From a phage, in NCBI GenBank assembly GCA_021149145.1, contig GCA_021149145.1_4322.1: a stretch of DNA of 34,803 bases, one strand, 5' to 3'. The notes beneath the pieces were generated by a model. It was not told where the DNA came from, made no database searches, and worked only from the letters and a program-made list of their open reading frames with translations. The first letter of the stretch is position 1; every line of letters begins with the position of its first letter. Of this stretch, positions 4,925-22,324 are shown piece after piece. Both the position numbers and the translations under genes were made by a program.

Positions 4925-5653
4925 TTATGACTCCCAATCCGGCACAGCCCAACAACGACAGCCGTATTCCTGACCAGGGAAGAGATCGTTACCGCCCAAC
5001 CTGAAGCTTAGGCCCTCTTTCTTGAAATGGGTCATTCGCTCCCTTTCATCAAGCATGCCGTGCCAAATGTAATGGGTAACACCAGCATCCTCTAGCCTCC
5101 TGCGCATGAACGTAGAGTTAATACTGGACGTGATGCCTGAGGCTATATTAGCAGTTCTCTTGCGGTAAATCTTGTACCTTTCGTTAATCTTAAGGTAGTC
5201 ACCACTCTGTATGATTGATGCAGACTGAATAAAGTCGTCCTTGATATTGTTGAGTAACTTTTCAACGGACTTATTTGATGTGTAAAGCCACTGGTTTAAA
5301 TCCGGCTGATACCAATCTTCATCTCCATTTATACCGTTAAGTCTCAAGTCCATAACTGACTGGACCGAGCCGCCACCGGTCTTGATTGCCAGCACAAGAA
5401 ACTGCGATGAATTATACCTGTATATTGACGCTCCAATTGCCGGAAGTGTAGCTACAACAGAAGCTATAAGCGCTGCTATGATTGCGTCGAGGTAATTATC
5501 TTCCTGCTCTAGCTCCTCGGCAGTGTCAATCTTAAGCCGCGTAGCTGATTCTTTCATTGCAGATATTAGCTCAGTTACCGCAACGCTAAGGTTGCGGTTT
5601 ACCTGATTCTCAATTGTCTGCGGGTACTTCCAGCGGGTCTTCACTGGTTTCAT
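4925..5653 (-). CDS. Minor head protein (Mu F / SPP1 gp7-like)
   Basis: 242 aa; directly downstream of portal; C-terminal GCRCW cysteine motif typical of Mu F-like head morphogenesis proteins. Confidence 0.6.
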   Translation of the reverse strand: MKPVKTRWKYPQTIENQVNRNLSVAVTELISAMKESATRLKIDTAEELEQEDNYLDAIIAALIASVVATLPAIGASIYRYNSSQFLVLAIKTGGGSVQSVMDLRLNGINGDEDWYQPDLNQWLYTSNKSVEKLLNNIKDDFIQSASIIQSGDYLKINERYKIYRKRTANIASGITSSINSTFMRRRLEDAGVTHYIWHGMLDERERMTHFKKEGLSFRLGGNDLFPGQEYGCRCWAVPDWES

Positions 5654-6887
5654 TGATTGTTACCTCTGTCTCAATTGAACCTTCACCAATCTTAACCTCA
5701 GGGGCTAATGCGCGCAAGGTATCTCGTGCTTCGTCTGCATCCATCACGCCGTTAGTGATAAGAGCAGTAATTGAATCAACGTTATTCTTCAGTGTTTCAG
5801 CGCGGTCTTTCTTCGATTCCTGAGCTAGAGGGTTAAACTCAACTGACCATTCTTGCTTGGTTGTGATGAACGGGATTAAGAACCCAAGAACTGGAAGTAG
5901 CTCTTCGTTACGCTTGCGGTCAACCAACTTATGGAATGTCTCTAGCGCTGTGTTTTGGCTAGATGATAACCCGCCAACGTTACGACCTTTGAGAATGACT
6001 TCATGGATACCACTCAGAGCAACAATTCTGTCGAACTTCTTATCGAGGAATCCATCAATCCCACCAATATCCGAGTTAAGAACGCTGTACTCTTCAGCTT
6101 CAGCGTCGATACCAATCGCGCGACCAACGCCAGAGTTATCATCAACCTGGGCAAGCCTCAACCTGGCCGCACCAAAACCTTCCGCGTCGTCACACAGTTC
6201 AGCAAGGCCTTTAGCCTTCCACACCGCCTGCTGCTTGCGGCGCAATAACTGAGTTGCCAGTTTCTCACACGTCTGATAATCCCTGATTGATTCAAGCAGG
6301 TCAGGAACCAGAACGCTAGCACCCCACCCGTCATTACCGCGACGCAATGAACTAGGAATCTTCTCGCCATCCATAATGTGAATTCGCGAGTAGTGCACAT
6401 CATAAAACATGGCGCCACCTTCTGGCGTGATGCGGTACGTTAATGGCTTACCGAATCGCACATTGCGAGGGTTTTCCTCCCTAGTCTGAACTCTTACCTG
6501 GCTACGCTCATAAACGCGAAGTGATTCAAGTTCCGCACCTTCACGTACCGGGCTAGTTAGCGCACGATTGTCCTTAACGATAGCCACAATTGCAGAGCCG
6601 CCAAATAACCTCGACCATGACCATGCGTCAGAGATTGACTCGTTAACCCTCAGGTAATCCCACCTGGACCAGAATTCACCTTCGTCATCAATACCATCGA
6701 TATGGAAACCTGCAGCGATTGCTGTCTCCGGTATGGTGTCGACGATGCGGCGTACAATTGAGTTTGATGCGTACAGTGAATCAGCGAAAGGAGGTGTAAG
6801 ATACGTGTTGCCAAAGTGCCCGTAAATCTCGCTACCATCACTGGGGCCACCAAGAAATTGCGTGGCGTATGAATCTGCTTTTACCAT
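5610..6887 (-). CDS. Portal protein
   Basis: 425 aa; canonical position between large terminase and Mu F-like gene. Confidence 0.7.
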   Translation of the reverse strand: MVKADSYATQFLGGPSDGSEIYGHFGNTYLTPPFADSLYASNSIVRRIVDTIPETAIAAGFHIDGIDDEGEFWSRWDYLRVNESISDAWSWSRLFGGSAIVAIVKDNRALTSPVREGAELESLRVYERSQVRVQTREENPRNVRFGKPLTYRITPEGGAMFYDVHYSRIHIMDGEKIPSSLRRGNDGWGASVLVPDLLESIRDYQTCEKLATQLLRRKQQAVWKAKGLAELCDDAEGFGAARLRLAQVDDNSGVGRAIGIDAEAEEYSVLNSDIGGIDGFLDKKFDRIVALSGIHEVILKGRNVGGLSSSQNTALETFHKLVDRKRNEELLPVLGFLIPFITTKQEWSVEFNPLAQESKKDRAETLKNNVDSITALITNGVMDADEARDTLRALAPEVKIGEGSIETEVTINETSEDPLEVPADN

Positions 6888-10117: not shown

Positions 10118-10193
10118 TGGTGTTCCGCACTGGACTCGAACCAGTAACTAAGACTTAGGAGGTCTTTGCGTTATCCTGTTACGCCAGCAGAAC
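10118..10193 (-). tRNA. tRNA-Arg (anticodon CCU)
   Basis: 76-nt cloverleaf folded by hand: acceptor GTTCTGC/GCGGAAC (one G-U), D-arm GCGT-AACAGGATA-ACGC, anticodon arm AAGAC-CUCCUAA-GTCTT, T-arm ACTGG-TTCGAGT-CCAGT, discriminator A, encoded CCA. Confidence 0.8.
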
Positions 10194-10381
10194 AAATCCT
10201 TGAGTAGCGATTGCGCTATTGAGGGATTGCTGGTTACGCTTCCAGCGTCGAGTTCCTCGACCGATTTCGCCATATACGCTGCTTAGTGAGTTATGGACTT
10301 TGTGTTGCACTCCGTGCGCCGTTGCCACTTGGTGGCCTCGTCTGTCTACAGTTGTTAATGTACCAGTCAGGGTTAGATGTG

Positions 10382-10579
10382 TCAACTTACTCTTTCGAAT
10401 TTCCCATAATTCTGGTCATACGGGTAGTCAATGCTCACCAATTCGCCATTATCGCTGTAGCAGAATGCGTGGCCAGTCTTCGATACCTTTTCGACCTGGT
10501 AATCGCATCCATCCATGAAGTCATCCGATGCCGCCTTTGTGCACTTGATAGCATCGCCTTTCTTAATAATCTTACTCAT
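10382..10579 (-). CDS. Hypothetical protein (65 aa)
   Basis: ORF; start overlaps stop of upstream gene. Confidence 0.45.
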   Translation of the reverse strand: MSKIIKKGDAIKCTKAASDDFMDGCDYQVEKVSKTGHAFCYSDNGELVSIDYPYDQNYGKFERVS

Positions 10580-10785
10580 TAAAACTCCTCAGTGATAAGC
10601 ATCTTGCCACAATATTTGCACTCGTAGAACGCACATGTTTCACCTATTGATACACTTGGTTTTGTTGACTCGTGGTATGCAGAGCTTATCGCCTTAATGT
10701 CAAAATCGTGAATGATTGATGTGAACACGTAAATGTAATGATGTTTGTGATTATTGTCGTTATCACTCATAAAGGCTATTCCCAT
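10579..10785 (-). CDS. Hypothetical protein (68 aa) with C-terminal CxxC
   Basis: ORF MGIAFMSD...; YECKYCGKM motif; 5' end lies inside a 29-bp direct repeat. Confidence 0.45.
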   Translation of the reverse strand: MGIAFMSDNDNNHKHHYIYVFTSIIHDFDIKAISSAYHESTKPSVSIGETCAFYECKYCGKMLITEEF

Positions 10786-10789
10786 TCTC
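10761..10789. repeat. 29-bp perfect direct repeat, copy 1 (TATCACTCATAAAGGCTATTCCCATTCTC)
   Basis: Identical to 10886-10914; on the minus strand it carries the ATG and first 8 codons (MGIAFMSD). Confidence 0.85.
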
Positions 10790-10793
10790 TAAC

Positions 10794-10910
10794 CTAATTC
10801 AATGTAAATATGAAGAAAATCATCCCAATTGCCGTAGCTATAGCCAATCCGATGGCGATCAGAGTTAGTACTAAATCAATGATAATATCACTCATAAAGG
10901 CTATTCCCAT
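10794..10910 (-). CDS. Possible small membrane protein (38 aa)
   Basis: Hand-translated: MGIAFMSDIIIDLVLTLIAIGLAIATAIGMIFFIFTLN; shares its first 8 codons with the downstream gene via the 29-bp repeat. Confidence 0.3.
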   Translation of the reverse strand: MGIAFMSDIIIDLVLTLIAIGLAIATAIGMIFFIFTLN

Positions 10911-10914
10911 TCTC
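10886..10914. repeat. 29-bp perfect direct repeat, copy 2
   Basis: Identical to 10761-10789; here it also encodes the C-terminus ...ENGNSLYE of the 78-aa ORF in another frame. Confidence 0.85.
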
Positions 10915-11124
10915 ATCATGACCCACACGCCCTCGACGATAGCCCGCTATCCACACAAACTTATCACGTGCGATTATCGTGGATACCGGCCCCCATATCT
11001 GAGTGATAAGCGCCGCAACAACCTTATCATCTTTCTTTTTTGCGCCCAATTTGCCGTATTCGTCATTCAGCTTGTCAGCCTGTCGCTTAACTGCGTTAAA
11101 GTATGCGTCGTCTAACCCGAACAT
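10888..11124 (-). CDS. Hypothetical protein (78 aa)
   Basis: ORF; motif-type promoter upstream (11154-11198). Confidence 0.45.
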   Translation of the reverse strand: MFGLDDAYFNAVKRQADKLNDEYGKLGAKKKDDKVVAALITQIWGPVSTIIARDKFVWIAGYRRGRVGHDENGNSLYE

Positions 11125-13165: not shown

Positions 13166-13286
13166 ATTCGTTACTCCTGATTGGTTGCCCTTCGTTAAGA
13201 TGAAACCATGGTATCATGAATATACGCGTTATCAAGTGTTATGTTGTGTTTATATCTGCATTGGTTACGCTTTTTGACCTCTCAGC

Positions 13287-13300
13287 CCAGCTATAGCTGG
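13287..13300. repeat. 14-bp perfect palindrome CCAGCTATAGCTGG
   Basis: Read directly; the AGCTATAGCT core recurs at 33072-33081 in the paralogous control region. Confidence 0.8.
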
Positions 13301-13440
13301 TGTAATTACCCTGTGTAAGATTTTACGCGGATTCGCCGGGGGTATGCATATGTATCTATATAGATAAAATTAGTAGTTTTCATAGAAAAACTATCGACCC
13401 ATCCATACGACCAATCTACACCATATACATACATATATAC

Positions 13441-13526
13441 AATAATAATAATAATATAGTAAAAGGTTGATATATATAGATATTATTATGTAACCATTGC
13501 GTAATCTAGCGTGGTAGGCGTATATG
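13441..13526. repeat. AT-rich control element, copy A (paralog of 33236-33320)
   Basis: (AAT)5 + identical 29-mer AGTAAAAGGTTGATATATATAGATATTAT (13458-13486) + GCGTA-type repeats at ~10-bp spacing (13499, 13509, 13518). Confidence 0.75.
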
Positions 13527-13764
13527 ATTCTTCGGAAGCGCACCTCATATACACACCATAACTTCGATAACGTGTATATCCAAATTGGCTCAGCAAGAAT
13601 CAAAATCAACTTGTATGGTAGTTCATCCACCATTCATTCACCCCACATCAATCATTGCAAATCCCGCAACAATCAAAAACATCATTGCATTCGATGCAAT
13701 ATTGTTATATGTGCAATAGTAAGATTAATCATTGCAATATCTGCAACAATAAATAAATCCAACT

Positions 13765-13809
13765 AATAGCACTTTTTGCTAAAGACATTTAGGTATTGCG
13801 GAGTTATGG
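13765..13809 (+). promoter_or_regulatory. Motif-type element (weak -10) upstream of the plus-strand island
   Basis: AATAGCACTTTTTGCTAAA followed 22 nt later by TTATGG, a poor hexamer. Confidence 0.3.
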
Positions 13810-13837
13810 TTCACTCATCAACAACGAGGAGAGAGAT

Positions 13838-14023
13838 ATGAAACTTAAAGACGAAGCATTTGAGCAATTAAAGCAGGAATGTGCGCTGATTGGATTGAAC
13901 AGTGACTATACTGATATGGTTTTACGCGGACGCATCAATATCGACCTTGCTAAGCAATTCCAGTCAGATGATGAATATATGTGCTGCGATGGCCTCGGCT
14001 GCGACGAATGTTTACCATGGTAA
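13838..14023 (+). CDS. Hypothetical small protein (61 aa) with C-terminal Cys cluster
   Basis: Track ORF 13796 (TTG start); better start at ATG 13838 with AGGAGAGAGAT RBS; ends ...MCCDGLGCDECLPW. Confidence 0.5.
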   Translation: MKLKDEAFEQLKQECALIGLNSDYTDMVLRGRINIDLAKQFQSDDEYMCCDGLGCDECLPW

Positions 14024-14034
14024 GGAGCCGAATA

Positions 14035-14226
14035 ATGAAAGTTAAGTGCTTAAATAATCTTAATGATGGAACCTGGGAATTCAGTAGTTGAAAGCATTAC
14101 AGTTATGATGAAATTTATGGTTACGTAGTTGGTGATAACTTCAAGCCAGTTTACTGCTACATTGAAAATGGCCTTGTTATTGCCGCTGTTAAGCGTCGAT
14201 TGATTTTTGAAATTTTAGAGGATTAA
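14035..14226 (+). pseudogene. Small ORF interrupted by an in-frame TGA at 14089-14091
   Basis: AAGGAG RBS 7 nt upstream of ATG; 18 codons, TGA, then 44 more open codons in the same frame with no internal start codon. Confidence 0.35.
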
Positions 14227-14227
14227 C

Positions 14228-14431
14228 ATGAAACTTCTTTGCACTAACATAATTGAAGACTTTAACGACGCCTTCAATAAGGGCTCTGAATACAACGCTA
14301 CCGAGTTTAAAAATGATATGTGCCTTGTTACCGGCGAACGTCCACACAAGCATCACGACACGTTCCAGGCGCTTAAATGCCTTGATTACGTAATCATCCA
14401 CGGCATCGCAACTTTTAAGGTGATTGAATAA
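14228..14431 (+). CDS. Hypothetical protein (67 aa)
   Basis: GAGGATTAAC-ATG RBS; start directly after upstream stop. Confidence 0.5.
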   Translation: MKLLCTNIIEDFNDAFNKGSEYNATEFKNDMCLVTGERPHKHHDTFQALKCLDYVIIHGIATFKVIE

Positions 14432-14595
14432 TGCTTTTACCATCTGAGATAAACTATTTCGATCTGGAAATTATTAGTGCTTACAGCGGAAAGGGTTGGC
14501 CTTGCGGGGGCTGGTTTAACGAGGACCTGCTTGAGTCTCACGAGATTATGTTGAAGGCAATTGAGAAGGCCAGAAGAAATAGCACTAATTGCTAA
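14431..14595 (+). CDS. Hypothetical small protein (54 aa)
   Basis: Start overlaps upstream stop (TAATG); C-terminus ...RRNSTNC encoded by the promoter element. Confidence 0.4.
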   Translation: MLLPSEINYFDLEIISAYSGKGWPCGGWFNEDLLESHEIMLKAIEKARRNSTNC

Positions 14596-14622
14596 AACTC
14601 ACCGCCACGGATGGCGTATATT
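14578..14622 (+). promoter_or_regulatory. Motif-type promoter (element + TATATT)
   Basis: AATAGCACTAATTGCTAAA, 22 nt, TATATT, then conserved leader CCATCGAAACGAAAGAGAG before the ATG at 14655. Confidence 0.45.
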
Positions 14623-14654
14623 TACTCCATCGAAACGAAAGAGAGCAAGAGATC

Positions 14655-14816
14655 ATGTTCGACAACTTTTATGACGCGATGGAAGAGGCGGTTTTCAGGG
14701 CGTCGATAGATGGTAAGATTTACGGTTTAGTTCAGAAGTTTGATAAGATTGTTGTGCGTATTGTGCGCAAATCAGTACCAAACAAATTCATGTGGACAAC
14801 TAAGAGATTAAAATAA
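14655..14816 (+). CDS. Hypothetical small protein (53 aa)
   Basis: Track ORF 14589..14816; ATG at 14655 sits behind the conserved leader. Confidence 0.4.
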   Translation: MFDNFYDAMEEAVFRASIDGKIYGLVQKFDKIVVRIVRKSVPNKFMWTTKRLK

Positions 14817-15205
14817 TGACTACTACGATAACCAAAAATTTCATTAGCAACGACAACAAGCTATTTAAAGCTCGCGTTAAAAAGATTCACCAGTGGGTTA
14901 ACGGTGTCGCTGAGGAAGTTGAATTTGAGCAAATCAAAAAAGACGGCAAATGGATCAACCTGGAAGAACGTGGAAAATACATTAAAACCAAAACTCTTTA
15001 CTGCACAAAGGTTAACCATAAGTCTGGCGTTAAGAAAGACTTCAAAGAAGGTAAGCGATACCAGGTCAACATGCATAGCGGACTTTGTCAGTCAACTGGA
15101 TACATTTACGATGAAGATGGCAACGCCTGGCAGCTATATCGCAGCGAAGATGTTGGCTTTTATACGTTGTGTGAAACTTACCACTTTGAGGCTCAATACA
15201 AATGA
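14816..15205 (+). CDS. Hypothetical protein (129 aa)
   Basis: Lys-rich ORF; start overlaps upstream stop. Confidence 0.5.
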   Translation: MTTTITKNFISNDNKLFKARVKKIHQWVNGVAEEVEFEQIKKDGKWINLEERGKYIKTKTLYCTKVNHKSGVKKDFKEGKRYQVNMHSGLCQSTGYIYDEDGNAWQLYRSEDVGFYTLCETYHFEAQYK

Positions 15206-15431: not shown

Positions 15432-17015
15432 ATGTTTGATTTCAACGAAGATAAACTATCTGTTGAGCAGGTTATGGCAATCGCTGCCAATGACAACCTA
15501 CCACCGCTTCGCGTGGCTATTAATGCCAATGGCTATCGACAGTCTCAATCGTTCTGGAAAGCACCTGTCGAGATTGATACAGGTAATGATAAGTATCCAG
15601 TAATCTCACTCGGTAATGATATTGATGTTGTTGGTAAGCTATCGGCTAATATCGCTCGCTCGGTTCAGTTCCCTGAGTCGTCAGCTTACATGCACTTTCT
15701 TGGTTGTGTTTCTGCTGCAATGCTTGGGCGTTTTACTGTCGAGTATCATGGAACCCAACAGCCAACATCTTTGTACGTGGTAACAAGTCAGCCGCCTTCA
15801 ACTGGTAAATCAGCCATTAACTCGCTATCAATTGCGCCGATGATTGCTGAGACTGCGCGGTTGAATGAAGTACGTAAACGTGATCGAAAAAAGATTATGG
15901 CTAAACTGTCCGCTCTGGCTAAAGAGATGAAGCAGGAAAAATCACCTTCTGAAATGGCTTCACTTTTTGAGGAGAAGGAGGATTTAGAGGAGAAGCTCGA
16001 GAAGCTATGCGATATAGTATTCCCTGTCTCCGATACTACTCCGGAAGGTCTTGCGCGAATCAACAATCGCCAGGGTAGTTTTGCGGTAATCTCTGATGAG
16101 GCTACTAGCGTCAACTCACTGTTAGGCATGACTTACGGTGATGGCTCGAAGAAAACGAACAGCGAGCTCGTGCTGAAAGCATGGGATGCAGGTAATGTGT
16201 CAATTGCCCGTGCGAACGCAGAAAATAACATGAGCTTTGTGGCTATGGGATGCATCTCCGTAATTGCTCAGGATGAAACAATCAATGCCATTATGAATGC
16301 TGGTGCGCGTGGTATTGGTGTATCTGAGCGTTTCCTTCTGGTGCGTGAAAAATCATTTCTTGGCGACCGTGTATTTGTTGATGAAAATGGTGATTCAACC
16401 TATGAGGCTATTGATGGCGGCCTGAAAGCAGACTATTTCCGTCTTGTTCATGAGATTATGAATGAAGTTGAAGTGAAACTTACTGTAAGCGCGTCATCAA
16501 TGCGTTACCTTAACCGCGCTCGTCAAGAGATGGAGCCTCATCTTGGTGATGGTGGCAAGTATTCTCACACAATGTTGCGCGGTGCTCTTGGTAAGTTTGA
16601 TAAGCAAGCAATCCGCATCGCTTCTGTTCTGCACGTAATTCGTAACTGGTTCTCACCAGCCGGATCCAGCCCTCAAAAGTCAAGAGAGATTGAACTGGAT
16701 ACAATGCAGGAAGCGATTATGATTTTCAACGAACTAAGCAAGACTTATTTATCATCCGCTAGTGCTGCTGGTCATGCTGGTGACAATGCCGAGATGAACA
16801 AGCTGGTTGATATCCTGATTAAGCAGGGCAAGAATGGTAAAGGTGTTGTTGGTGTTCGCTCGTTGTATGAGGCTGCACGCAAGGTTAAACCTTTTGAAGG
16901 TCAGGCTGGAATTATGACTCGCATTAAGGACCACTTGATTCCTATGCTTGATGAGAAAAACTACACATGCCTGATTGGTGATAAAATTTACATTAATCCA
17001 CGATTGCTGGGGTAA
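15432..17015 (+). CDS. Hypothetical P-loop ATPase (Walker A and B), 527 aa
   Basis: GGAGAGAAG RBS; Walker A-like QPPSTGKSAIN and Walker B-like FAVISDEATS about 100 aa later; largest gene of the island. Family not assignable by eye. Confidence 0.55.
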   Translation: MFDFNEDKLSVEQVMAIAANDNLPPLRVAINANGYRQSQSFWKAPVEIDTGNDKYPVISLGNDIDVVGKLSANIARSVQFPESSAYMHFLGCVSAAMLGRFTVEYHGTQQPTSLYVVTSQPPSTGKSAINSLSIAPMIAETARLNEVRKRDRKKIMAKLSALAKEMKQEKSPSEMASLFEEKEDLEEKLEKLCDIVFPVSDTTPEGLARINNRQGSFAVISDEATSVNSLLGMTYGDGSKKTNSELVLKAWDAGNVSIARANAENNMSFVAMGCISVIAQDETINAIMNAGARGIGVSERFLLVREKSFLGDRVFVDENGDSTYEAIDGGLKADYFRLVHEIMNEVEVKLTVSASSMRYLNRARQEMEPHLGDGGKYSHTMLRGALGKFDKQAIRIASVLHVIRNWFSPAGSSPQKSREIELDTMQEAIMIFNELSKTYLSSASAAGHAGDNAEMNKLVDILIKQGKNGKGVVGVRSLYEAARKVKPFEGQAGIMTRIKDHLIPMLDEKNYTCLIGDKIYINPRLLG

Positions 17016-17380: not shown

Positions 17381-17752
17381 GTTTTTCCTGAATATCATTA
17401 AGAGCAGAATGATGATGACGCAAAACATGATTCCACTCCCAATCCACGGGATTGCAGACGAATCATTGTTGGTGATTTCAATCTTCTCAGCCGTGATTGT
17501 TGATGCCTTGATTGAGTTATCAGAAGTCTTTTTACCGCTTGAACTATCAAGAGTGTCAACCTTAGAGTTCTTCACTTCAGCCTTTGCGCTGGAACTTGAA
17601 TCAACCTTATTAGTTAGCCCTACTCCAACCTTGTTATTCTCCGCACCTGCTTGAGCGCTAATCTCTGGCTTACTACCAATCAACCCGGCCAGCGCAGATG
17701 TTGCCGAGCAACCAGAAAGCAGAATTACCGCAGCAATTAATACAGCCTTCAT
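17366..17752 (-). CDS. Unimolecular spanin (lipoprotein with C-terminal transmembrane domain)
   Basis: Signal peptide with lipobox LLSGC, Ser/Lys-rich periplasmic region, C-terminal TMD IPWIGSGIMFCVIIILLLMIF; last gene of lysis cassette. Confidence 0.65.
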   Translation of the reverse strand: MKAVLIAAVILLSGCSATSALAGLIGSKPEISAQAGAENNKVGVGLTNKVDSSSSAKAEVKNSKVDTLDSSSGKKTSDNSIKASTITAEKIEITNNDSSAIPWIGSGIMFCVIIILLLMIFRKNKKAP

Positions 17753-18234
17753 TTACCCACCCCACTTAAGCATAATTTAATCTCCTCGTTGCGCCTGTTA
17801 ACGAGGCCTTTAACAACTTTTAGCTTGCCATTTACTCGAGCTTTATTCCAGGAGGCGAGAGCATTACAACCCTCTTCAATCTTGCCCTGATTAATCAGCT
17901 TAACAGCTGTTGACTTCCTCATTGCAGAACCGCCAACGTTGTAGCTAAAGCTGATTAACGCAGCCCTTGTTTCTGCAGCAATTGGATATGTAACTGCATC
18001 CTGCACATACTTGCCATGAATCTGAATGTGCTTCTCCAGTAAGTTCCTGCACTCCCTTGCACTGTACTTTTTACCCCACACTACATCAGGACCAGTGATA
18101 CCTGAACAAACCGTAGGAATGCCTGAAATGTCCATGTAAGGCCTGTATTCCACACCTTCTACTAGCTCAATAATCGGCGCTGCGATGTATATTGCCACAG
18201 CCGTCGCTGCACTAATTAACAACTTCCGCTTCAT
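17749..18234 (-). CDS. SAR endolysin (lysozyme-like)
   Basis: N-terminal signal-anchor-release-like hydrophobic segment (LLISAATAVAIYIAAPI) followed by E-x8-D-x5-T-type catalytic spacing (ELVEGVEYRPYMDISGIPTVCSGIT). Confidence 0.7.
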   Translation of the reverse strand: MKRKLLISAATAVAIYIAAPIIELVEGVEYRPYMDISGIPTVCSGITGPDVVWGKKYSARECRNLLEKHIQIHGKYVQDAVTYPIAAETRAALISFSYNVGGSAMRKSTAVKLINQGKIEEGCNALASWNKARVNGKLKVVKGLVNRRNEEIKLCLSGVGK

Positions 18235-19364: not shown

Positions 19365-19827
19365 TTATTCTCTGTGAGATTCGCAGTCTTTTGGTAATTC
19401 TTTATATTCACAAACTGACATTACAGTATATCCGCAATTCCTTAGGTGACTGATAACATTAGGATTATCCTCAAAGATTATCACACTTGCTTTGTCACCA
19501 TTACACAAATCATTTAGCCACATCTCTTTAATGATATAGTCATTTCTGTTATCCAATCTACTCCTCATATATATTCCATCATAATTAATATTATTATACT
19601 GAAGCCATTCAAGCGTCATACATTCGACTTCGTCACTTCTTGAAGTCATGATGTAAACTGGCGATAACTCAGCTAACGCATTCATCATGTATTATAGGTG
19701 AATCTCCAGAACAGGCTCTATTGTAATCACCCCAACTTGAAGTCAAGTGAAGGTCACTAGATGGTAAGAGGTAGCTTCTATGTTCATTGTTAGCAATAGT
19801 TCCATCAATATCAAACACGTAAATCAT
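19365..19827 (-). pseudogene. HAD-family phosphatase split by a 1-nt frameshift
   Basis: GAGGAG RBS then ATG at 19827; MIYVFDIDGTIAN (HAD motif I) runs 52 codons to a TGA at 19669-19671; motif II-like IMTSRS and ...VIIFEDNPNV continue in another frame (19365..19688). Confidence 0.5.
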
Positions 19828-22124: not shown

Positions 22125-22129
22125 TACTC

Positions 22130-22324
22130 CTATACCTCATCAAATTTTTCGCCGAATTCGTTTTTAACAGTTTCCAGATCATGTTTGTAAGTTGGGCTAA
22201 CTTCGAATGCATATGTGCAGTCTTCAATGTCAACCAAAACATAACCATCTTCAGTTACTTGCATCTCGTAGATGTAGCCAGTCTTGCGTGATTCGTAGAA
22301 TTTACCAGTATAGATAGTAGCCAT
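22130..22324 (-). CDS. Hypothetical protein (64 aa)
   Basis: First gene after motif promoter 22363-22407; GAGAGAAAGAAA-ATG leader. Confidence 0.45.
   Translation of the reverse strand: MATIYTGKFYESRKTGYIYEMQVTEDGYVLVDIEDCTYAFEVSPTYKHDLETVKNEFGEKFDEV

Follow-up and report, generated by a model that had tools for sequence, protein, structure and literature searches.

An in-frame opal codon in a small early gene of a T1-like coliphage: probably a recent nonsense mutation rather than recoding

The DNA analysed here, called the window below, is a stretch of 34,803 nucleotides that megablast assigns to the Braunvirinae (Drexlerviridae, T1-like coliphages). Its closest GenBank genomes are those of Escherichia phages AN_ECEAS and ES, with approximately 93% identity, and the best matches at the locus described in this study are found in TR1/TR2/TR3, Rao1, CY1, and phiA2-1, with approximately 86-87% identity. 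The locus is situated in a rightward, tightly packed run of small genes (13838-14023, 14035-14226, 14228-14431, 14431-14595, and onward), which is preceded by a divergent intergenic region of 672 nt and continues up to a DUF3987 primase-like gene at 15432. The disrupted ORF is the second gene of this run. The intergenic region itself contains a 33-nt direct repeat (13647-13679 and 13724-13756, 79% identical), the copies of which flank a near-palindrome, AACATCATTGCAT-tcg-ATGCAATATTGTT (13678-13706), and a motif, ATTGCA, recurs there. The repeat, the near-palindrome, and the motif, all upstream of the operon, are candidate operator or early-promoter control sites. The features on which the following argument depends are these:

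14022-14027, plus strand: Shine-Dalgarno sequence AAGGAG, read directly and the same in the closest intact relative (L004) and in the second TGA-bearing contig (L006/L008), both introduced below
14035-14226, plus strand: the whole disrupted ORF, 192 nt, whose orthologues in Braunvirinae phages (TR1/TR2/TR3, Rao1, CY1, phiA2-1, SU57) encode a hypothetical early protein of 63 aa
14035-14088, plus strand: the N-terminal 18 codons, MKVKCLNNLNDGTWEFSS, the sole portion translated without read-through
14089-14091, plus strand: opal codon TGA in place of the invariant Gly19 codon, which is GGA in the closest relative; the next base is A (UGA-A context)
14092-14223, plus strand: the 44 codons of the ancestral C-terminal part, KHYSYDEIYGYVVGDNFKPVYCYIENGLVIAAVKRRLIFEILED, open and collinear with the orthologues
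14218-14222, plus strand: GAGGA Shine-Dalgarno sequence of the next gene, read directly, located within the 3'-terminal part of the disrupted ORF
14228-14431, plus strand: the gene that follows (phrog_4448, 67 aa), whose N-terminus weakly resembles that of the disrupted gene and has a Gly in register with Gly19
10118-10193, minus strand: tRNA-Arg(CCT), the sole tRNA in the 34.8-kb window, abutting a mosaic block described below

All the coordinates given by the first-pass annotation were verified: the AAGGAG is separated by a 7-nt spacer from the ATG at 14035-14037, 18 codons precede the TGA, and the 44-codon frame that follows is closed by a TAA at 14224-14226, with a single base left between it and the next gene. 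The accompanying statement that the downstream part has no start codon of its own holds for ATG and GTG but not for TTG, because the frame contains one at 14200-14202 (codon 56). This is the sole canonical start 3' of the TGA, and it would give only 8 residues. Internal re-initiation was rejected for these reasons, and the logic by which the downstream 44 codons had been considered translatable only by read-through is correct. Frameshifting or bypass around the TGA was also rejected, since the conserved parts on both sides share one reading frame and correspond collinearly to the orthologues; the +1 frame ends at 14128.

On sequence statistics alone, 44 open codons after a stop are only mildly unusual: stop-to-stop intervals of at least 44 codons make up 7.6% of all such intervals in the six frames of the window. 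The complete arrangement, in which a Shine-Dalgarno sequence and ATG are followed by a short ORF, a stop, and an open frame of at least 40 codons without internal ATG or GTG, has this locus as its sole case in the window. What takes the pattern beyond chance is that the two halves, taken as one protein, can be aligned over their full length with intact proteins of 63-66 aa from related phages.

An intact CDS is annotated at the same place in TR2 and phiA2-1, and a tblastn search of GenBank phages returned seven records, among them an SU57 copy with 48% identity. When the conceptual full-length product was compared with 5.8 billion proteins, only three clusters were found, all of 63-64 aa and all with Gly19. 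Glycine occupies codon 19 in every one of the nine intact orthologues, which are 63-66 aa long, and it is encoded by GGA in six (L004, TR1, TR2, TR3, Rao1, and CY1), by GGG in two (L005 and phiA2-1), and by GGC in one (SU57). The first-pass annotation had named an ordinary sense codon in the orthologues, together with reads that confirm the TGA and a lack of read-through product, as the outcome that speaks against recoding, and the orthologues do carry such a codon. Among the intact copies dN/dS is 0.15-0.25, with the N- and C-terminal parts alike, and the ancestral gene was therefore a real protein-coding gene under purifying selection. Neither a Pfam nor a PHROG family matched the product of the disrupted gene, and its AlphaFold model (pLDDT 46) was unusable. 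A profile search of 1.84 billion representatives gave one true small homologue (P0004, SU57-like) together with multi-stretch matches to long repeat proteins (P0005-P0007). The sole long match inspected, P0006 (414 aa), is a eukaryotic Sushi/SCR-repeat protein matched in six stretches, and the long proteins were rejected as homologues, the hits being probably additive weak matches to an all-beta, Cys-containing repeat. No further copy of either allele was found in IMG/VR, JGI metagenomes, GTDB genomes, or E. coli complete genomes.

The closest intact copy lies on an ENA metagenome contig (ERZ27230487 k141_222313; L004) that is 94-96% identical to the window over approximately 15 kb. Within the 192 nt of the gene, the two differ at only two positions, one in codon 19 (TGA in the window, GGA in L004) and one in codon 52 (GTT versus TTT). 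Because the closest intact copy, so little different, has GGA, the TGA is a derived state reached by a single G-to-T transversion. A single-base difference from the closest relative is also what a sequencing or assembly error would produce, with G as the true base at 14089. This explanation is contradicted by a second assembly from another run, Logan contig DRR314303_319 (L006/L008; 8282 nt), which was found via the exact downstream protein of the window. It has the identical TGA in its DNA, with no gene called at that position, even though 113 substitutions and 10 gap openings separate it from the window over 8.3 kb (98.3% identity). The differences lie on both sides of the disrupted gene, the nearest at 13937 and 14472. 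Several proteins of the window are missing from the collection that holds DRR314303_319, so the two are separate sequences. An identical TGA in an independent, non-identical assembly means, therefore, that the allele is real and inherited in a small lineage, and an error at 14089 is highly improbable.

That lineage is shallow, as the TGA allele was found in the window and L008 only and is absent from L004. The differences between the two carriers are unevenly distributed: a mosaic block at 10184-10934, next to the tRNA gene, accounts for 104 of the 147 alignment columns that differ, and the remainder of the 8.3 kb is approximately 0.6% different. The disrupted 192 nt show no differences between the window and L008, but this says nothing on selection acting on the downstream part, because identity runs of 500-860 nt are common between the two sequences.

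The gene can be lost altogether. In phage ES, the downstream gene begins immediately after the stop codon of the upstream gene and the Shine-Dalgarno sequence (ATGAAGCTAATTTGCACGAAC, encoding MKLICTN...), with the orthologue of the disrupted gene absent, and the junction, read within 1700-1740 of the ES sequence (L003), coincides exactly with the start codon. The match of AN_ECEAS to the locus shows the two-piece, 73% pattern seen for ES, and it likewise has no copy. Because the gene is cleanly missing from these two viable isolates, it is dispensable. As to how it came and went, the disrupted gene and the next gene have similar N-termini (MKVKCLNN... and MKLLCTN...; BLASTP E = 0.001 over 26 aa), and the similar 5' ends, taken with the clean junction, suggest either a tandem duplication or a deletion by recombination between paralogous 5' ends.

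The nonsense change might have been selected as a knock-out because the protein is harmful in the host of this lineage, either as the trigger of a defence system or through toxicity. The allele is common to two diverged genomes, the gene has been gained and lost repeatedly among close relatives, and it is a small early accessory gene outside Pfam and PHROG families, all of which would suit such a role. Neutral loss of a dispensable gene, however, explains the same data, and we regard a selected knock-out as quite unlikely.

The first-pass annotation had offered read-through or recoding on one hand and a nonsense-mutated pseudogene on the other. Decoding of the TGA by dedicated machinery, namely, selenocysteine insertion, reassignment of the code 4 or 25 type (to Trp or Gly), or a phage opal suppressor tRNA, has in its favor the coincidence that the orthologues have Gly, which is the meaning of TGA in code 25. 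TGA is, however, an ordinary terminator in the window, where 14 of the 47 ORFs that reach 100 aa terminate with this codon, and the TGA-ended genes for the portal (5610-6887), lysozyme (17749-18234), and a 129-aa protein (14816-15205) have lengths equal to those of their L004 orthologues. When 36 L004 proteins were compared with the window by tblastn, an internal TGA appeared in the disrupted gene only. The related phages, moreover, infect E. coli, which uses the standard code, and a TGA-reassigned genetic code was rejected on stop-codon usage and orthologue comparison. A stop appeared in the alignment of one other gene, the small one at 22127-22324 (minus strand), which simply finishes two codons before its L004 orthologue (...FDEV* versus ...FDEVSE*), a trivial C-terminal difference in length. 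Selenocysteine was rejected as well: the 81 nt from 14080 (14080-14160) fold no better than shuffled sequences (z = -0.75), an Rfam scan of 13200-14800 gave no match, there is thus no SECIS-like hairpin, and the orthologues have Gly, not Cys. No suppressor tRNA with a UCA anticodon was found in the 34.8-kb window, with approximately 11 kb of the genome lying outside it, and this candidate was rejected because tRNA-Arg(CCT) is the only tRNA there. Taken together, dedicated decoding has a practically negligible probability.

A subtler form of read-through requires no special machinery. In K-12 reporters, basal read-through of UGA is approximately 2% at 37 °C and 4% at 25 °C, with Trp-tRNA(Trp) competing with RF2 (PMC10570021), and a UGA followed by A is especially prone to read-through (PMC5289835, citing Engelberg-Kulka 1981); read-through in a coliphage was described long ago (Weiner and Weber 1973, cited in PMC5289835). 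It can thus be imagined that the TGA has been kept as a selected leaky stop, at which approximately 2-4% read-through by Trp-tRNA(Trp) provides, as for the Q-beta A1 protein, a small but useful amount of the full-length Gly19Trp product. The UGA-A context, which is leaky in E. coli, would agree with this idea, as would the intact downstream frame and the occurrence of the allele in two non-identical genomes. Programmed read-through would nevertheless be expected to leave a conserved stop and a site-specific stimulator, and the stop is found in two closely related sequences versus nine orthologues without it. The codon after site 19 is AAG or AAT in every orthologue, so the A at position +4 is simply the first base of an ancestral Lys or Asn codon and not an adaptation, and the downstream RNA is devoid of a stimulatory structure. 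The TGA also takes the place of an invariant Gly in the interior of the protein and does not stand at a domain boundary, the gene is dispensable, and the locus offers no post-mutation substitutions by which selection could be tested. A selected leaky stop is, in our judgment, very unlikely. That the TGA allele is adaptive in one way or the other, as a knock-out of a toxic or defence-sensed protein or as a leaky opal tuning its dose to approximately 2-4%, is unlikely; the presence of the allele in two diverged natural genomes is compatible with such an advantage but does not demonstrate it.

The explanation we favor with good confidence is a recent single-base nonsense mutation in a non-essential early gene, which has in effect made the gene a pseudogene of very recent origin or, in the best case, a strong hypomorph. 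The change is an ordinary opal nonsense mutation and not programmed recoding. Of the two alternatives raised by the first-pass annotation, recoding thus found no support in stop conservation, a stimulatory structure, a SECIS element, code reassignment, or a suppressor tRNA within the window, and the pseudogene is supported by Gly in nine of nine orthologues, a stop reached in one G-to-T step within a shallow lineage, and absence of the gene from close relatives. In the lineage of the window genome, a single G-to-T transversion turned the GGA codon of the invariant Gly19 into an opal TGA. Ribosomes would still start at the strong Shine-Dalgarno sequence and ATG, and RF2 would terminate translation at codon 19 to release an 18-residue peptide. 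The next gene is likely to be little affected, as its own GAGGA sequence should make it independent of translational coupling. Misreading of UGA by Trp-tRNA(Trp), favored before A, would probably yield a small amount of full-length Gly19Trp protein, perhaps a few percent, as unselected leakage, and a change from an invariant Gly to Trp would probably not leave the protein unaffected. The loss would be tolerated because the gene is accessory. The absence of further decay in the downstream 44 codons and the sharing of the allele by two genomes approximately 0.6-1.7% diverged leave room for some residual function.

Two other genes of the same genome deserve mention here. A gene for a HAD/PNKP-like phosphatase (19368-19827, minus strand) bears a second inactivating lesion, an 11-nt frameshifting deletion between 19690 and 19689. 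It is intact, encoding 157 aa, in L004 and in phage ES; the 11 nt lost are TCCAATGATAA in L004 and are also present, with a single substitution, in ES. What remains in the window is an N-terminal 46 aa with a DxDGT motif, followed by a stop, and a C-terminal 107 aa as a separate ORF (19365-19688). This lesion fits a genome that tolerates the loss of accessory functions. The second case is at 10797-11124 (minus strand). L004 has there one protein of 110 aa with a hydrophobic segment towards its C-terminus, and the window and L008, owing to a 2-nt (GT) length difference, have proteins of 78 aa and 32 aa with an overlapping stop/start, TATGAGTGA. The split is the same in L008 despite substitutions at its junction, so the split arrangement is inherited, and the combination of 78 aa and 32 aa may be the functional form.

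The appropriate annotation of 14035-14226 is that of a conserved hypothetical Braunvirinae early gene disrupted by a nonsense mutation, not that of a recoding event. The locus illustrates cleanly, in a natural lytic phage, how a pseudogene looks soon after its origin, and both the ancestral state and a sister genome are identifiable. If the knock-out were adaptive, for example as an escape from a defence system, it would point to a function for an uncharacterised gene family; otherwise, it matters little.

Comparison with known systems places the locus as follows. Reassignment of stop codons (tables 4 and 25, and recoded phages) likewise gives an in-frame TGA where relatives have Gly, but here TGA is the normal terminator of many genes in the window, the phage belongs to a group infecting E. 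coli, and the window contains no suppressor tRNA. Bacterial selenocysteine recoding, which depends on a UGA and a downstream SECIS hairpin, shares with this locus an in-frame UGA within an ORF, and it differs in the two respects already described, the hairpin and the amino acid of the orthologues. In the Q-beta coat/A1 system, the leaky opal codon, which Trp-tRNA(Trp) reads in E. coli, is conserved and closes a complete coat gene, and the extension is essential. The likeness is confined to that of a coliphage UGA misreadable by the host tRNA(Trp) at a few percent, and the same mechanism would account for any full-length product here; in contrast, the present stop falls within one small domain, at a position where Gly is invariant, is missing from the other orthologues, and interrupts a dispensable gene. 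The locus agrees best with classical opal and amber nonsense mutants and with young accessory pseudogenes of phages, in which a one-base change from sense to stop occurs in an otherwise intact, conserved ORF. As in the classical mutants, the orthologues keep the sense codon and the gene is non-essential, and nothing substantive differs, except that the allele described here is carried not by a laboratory mutant but by two natural, non-identical genomes.
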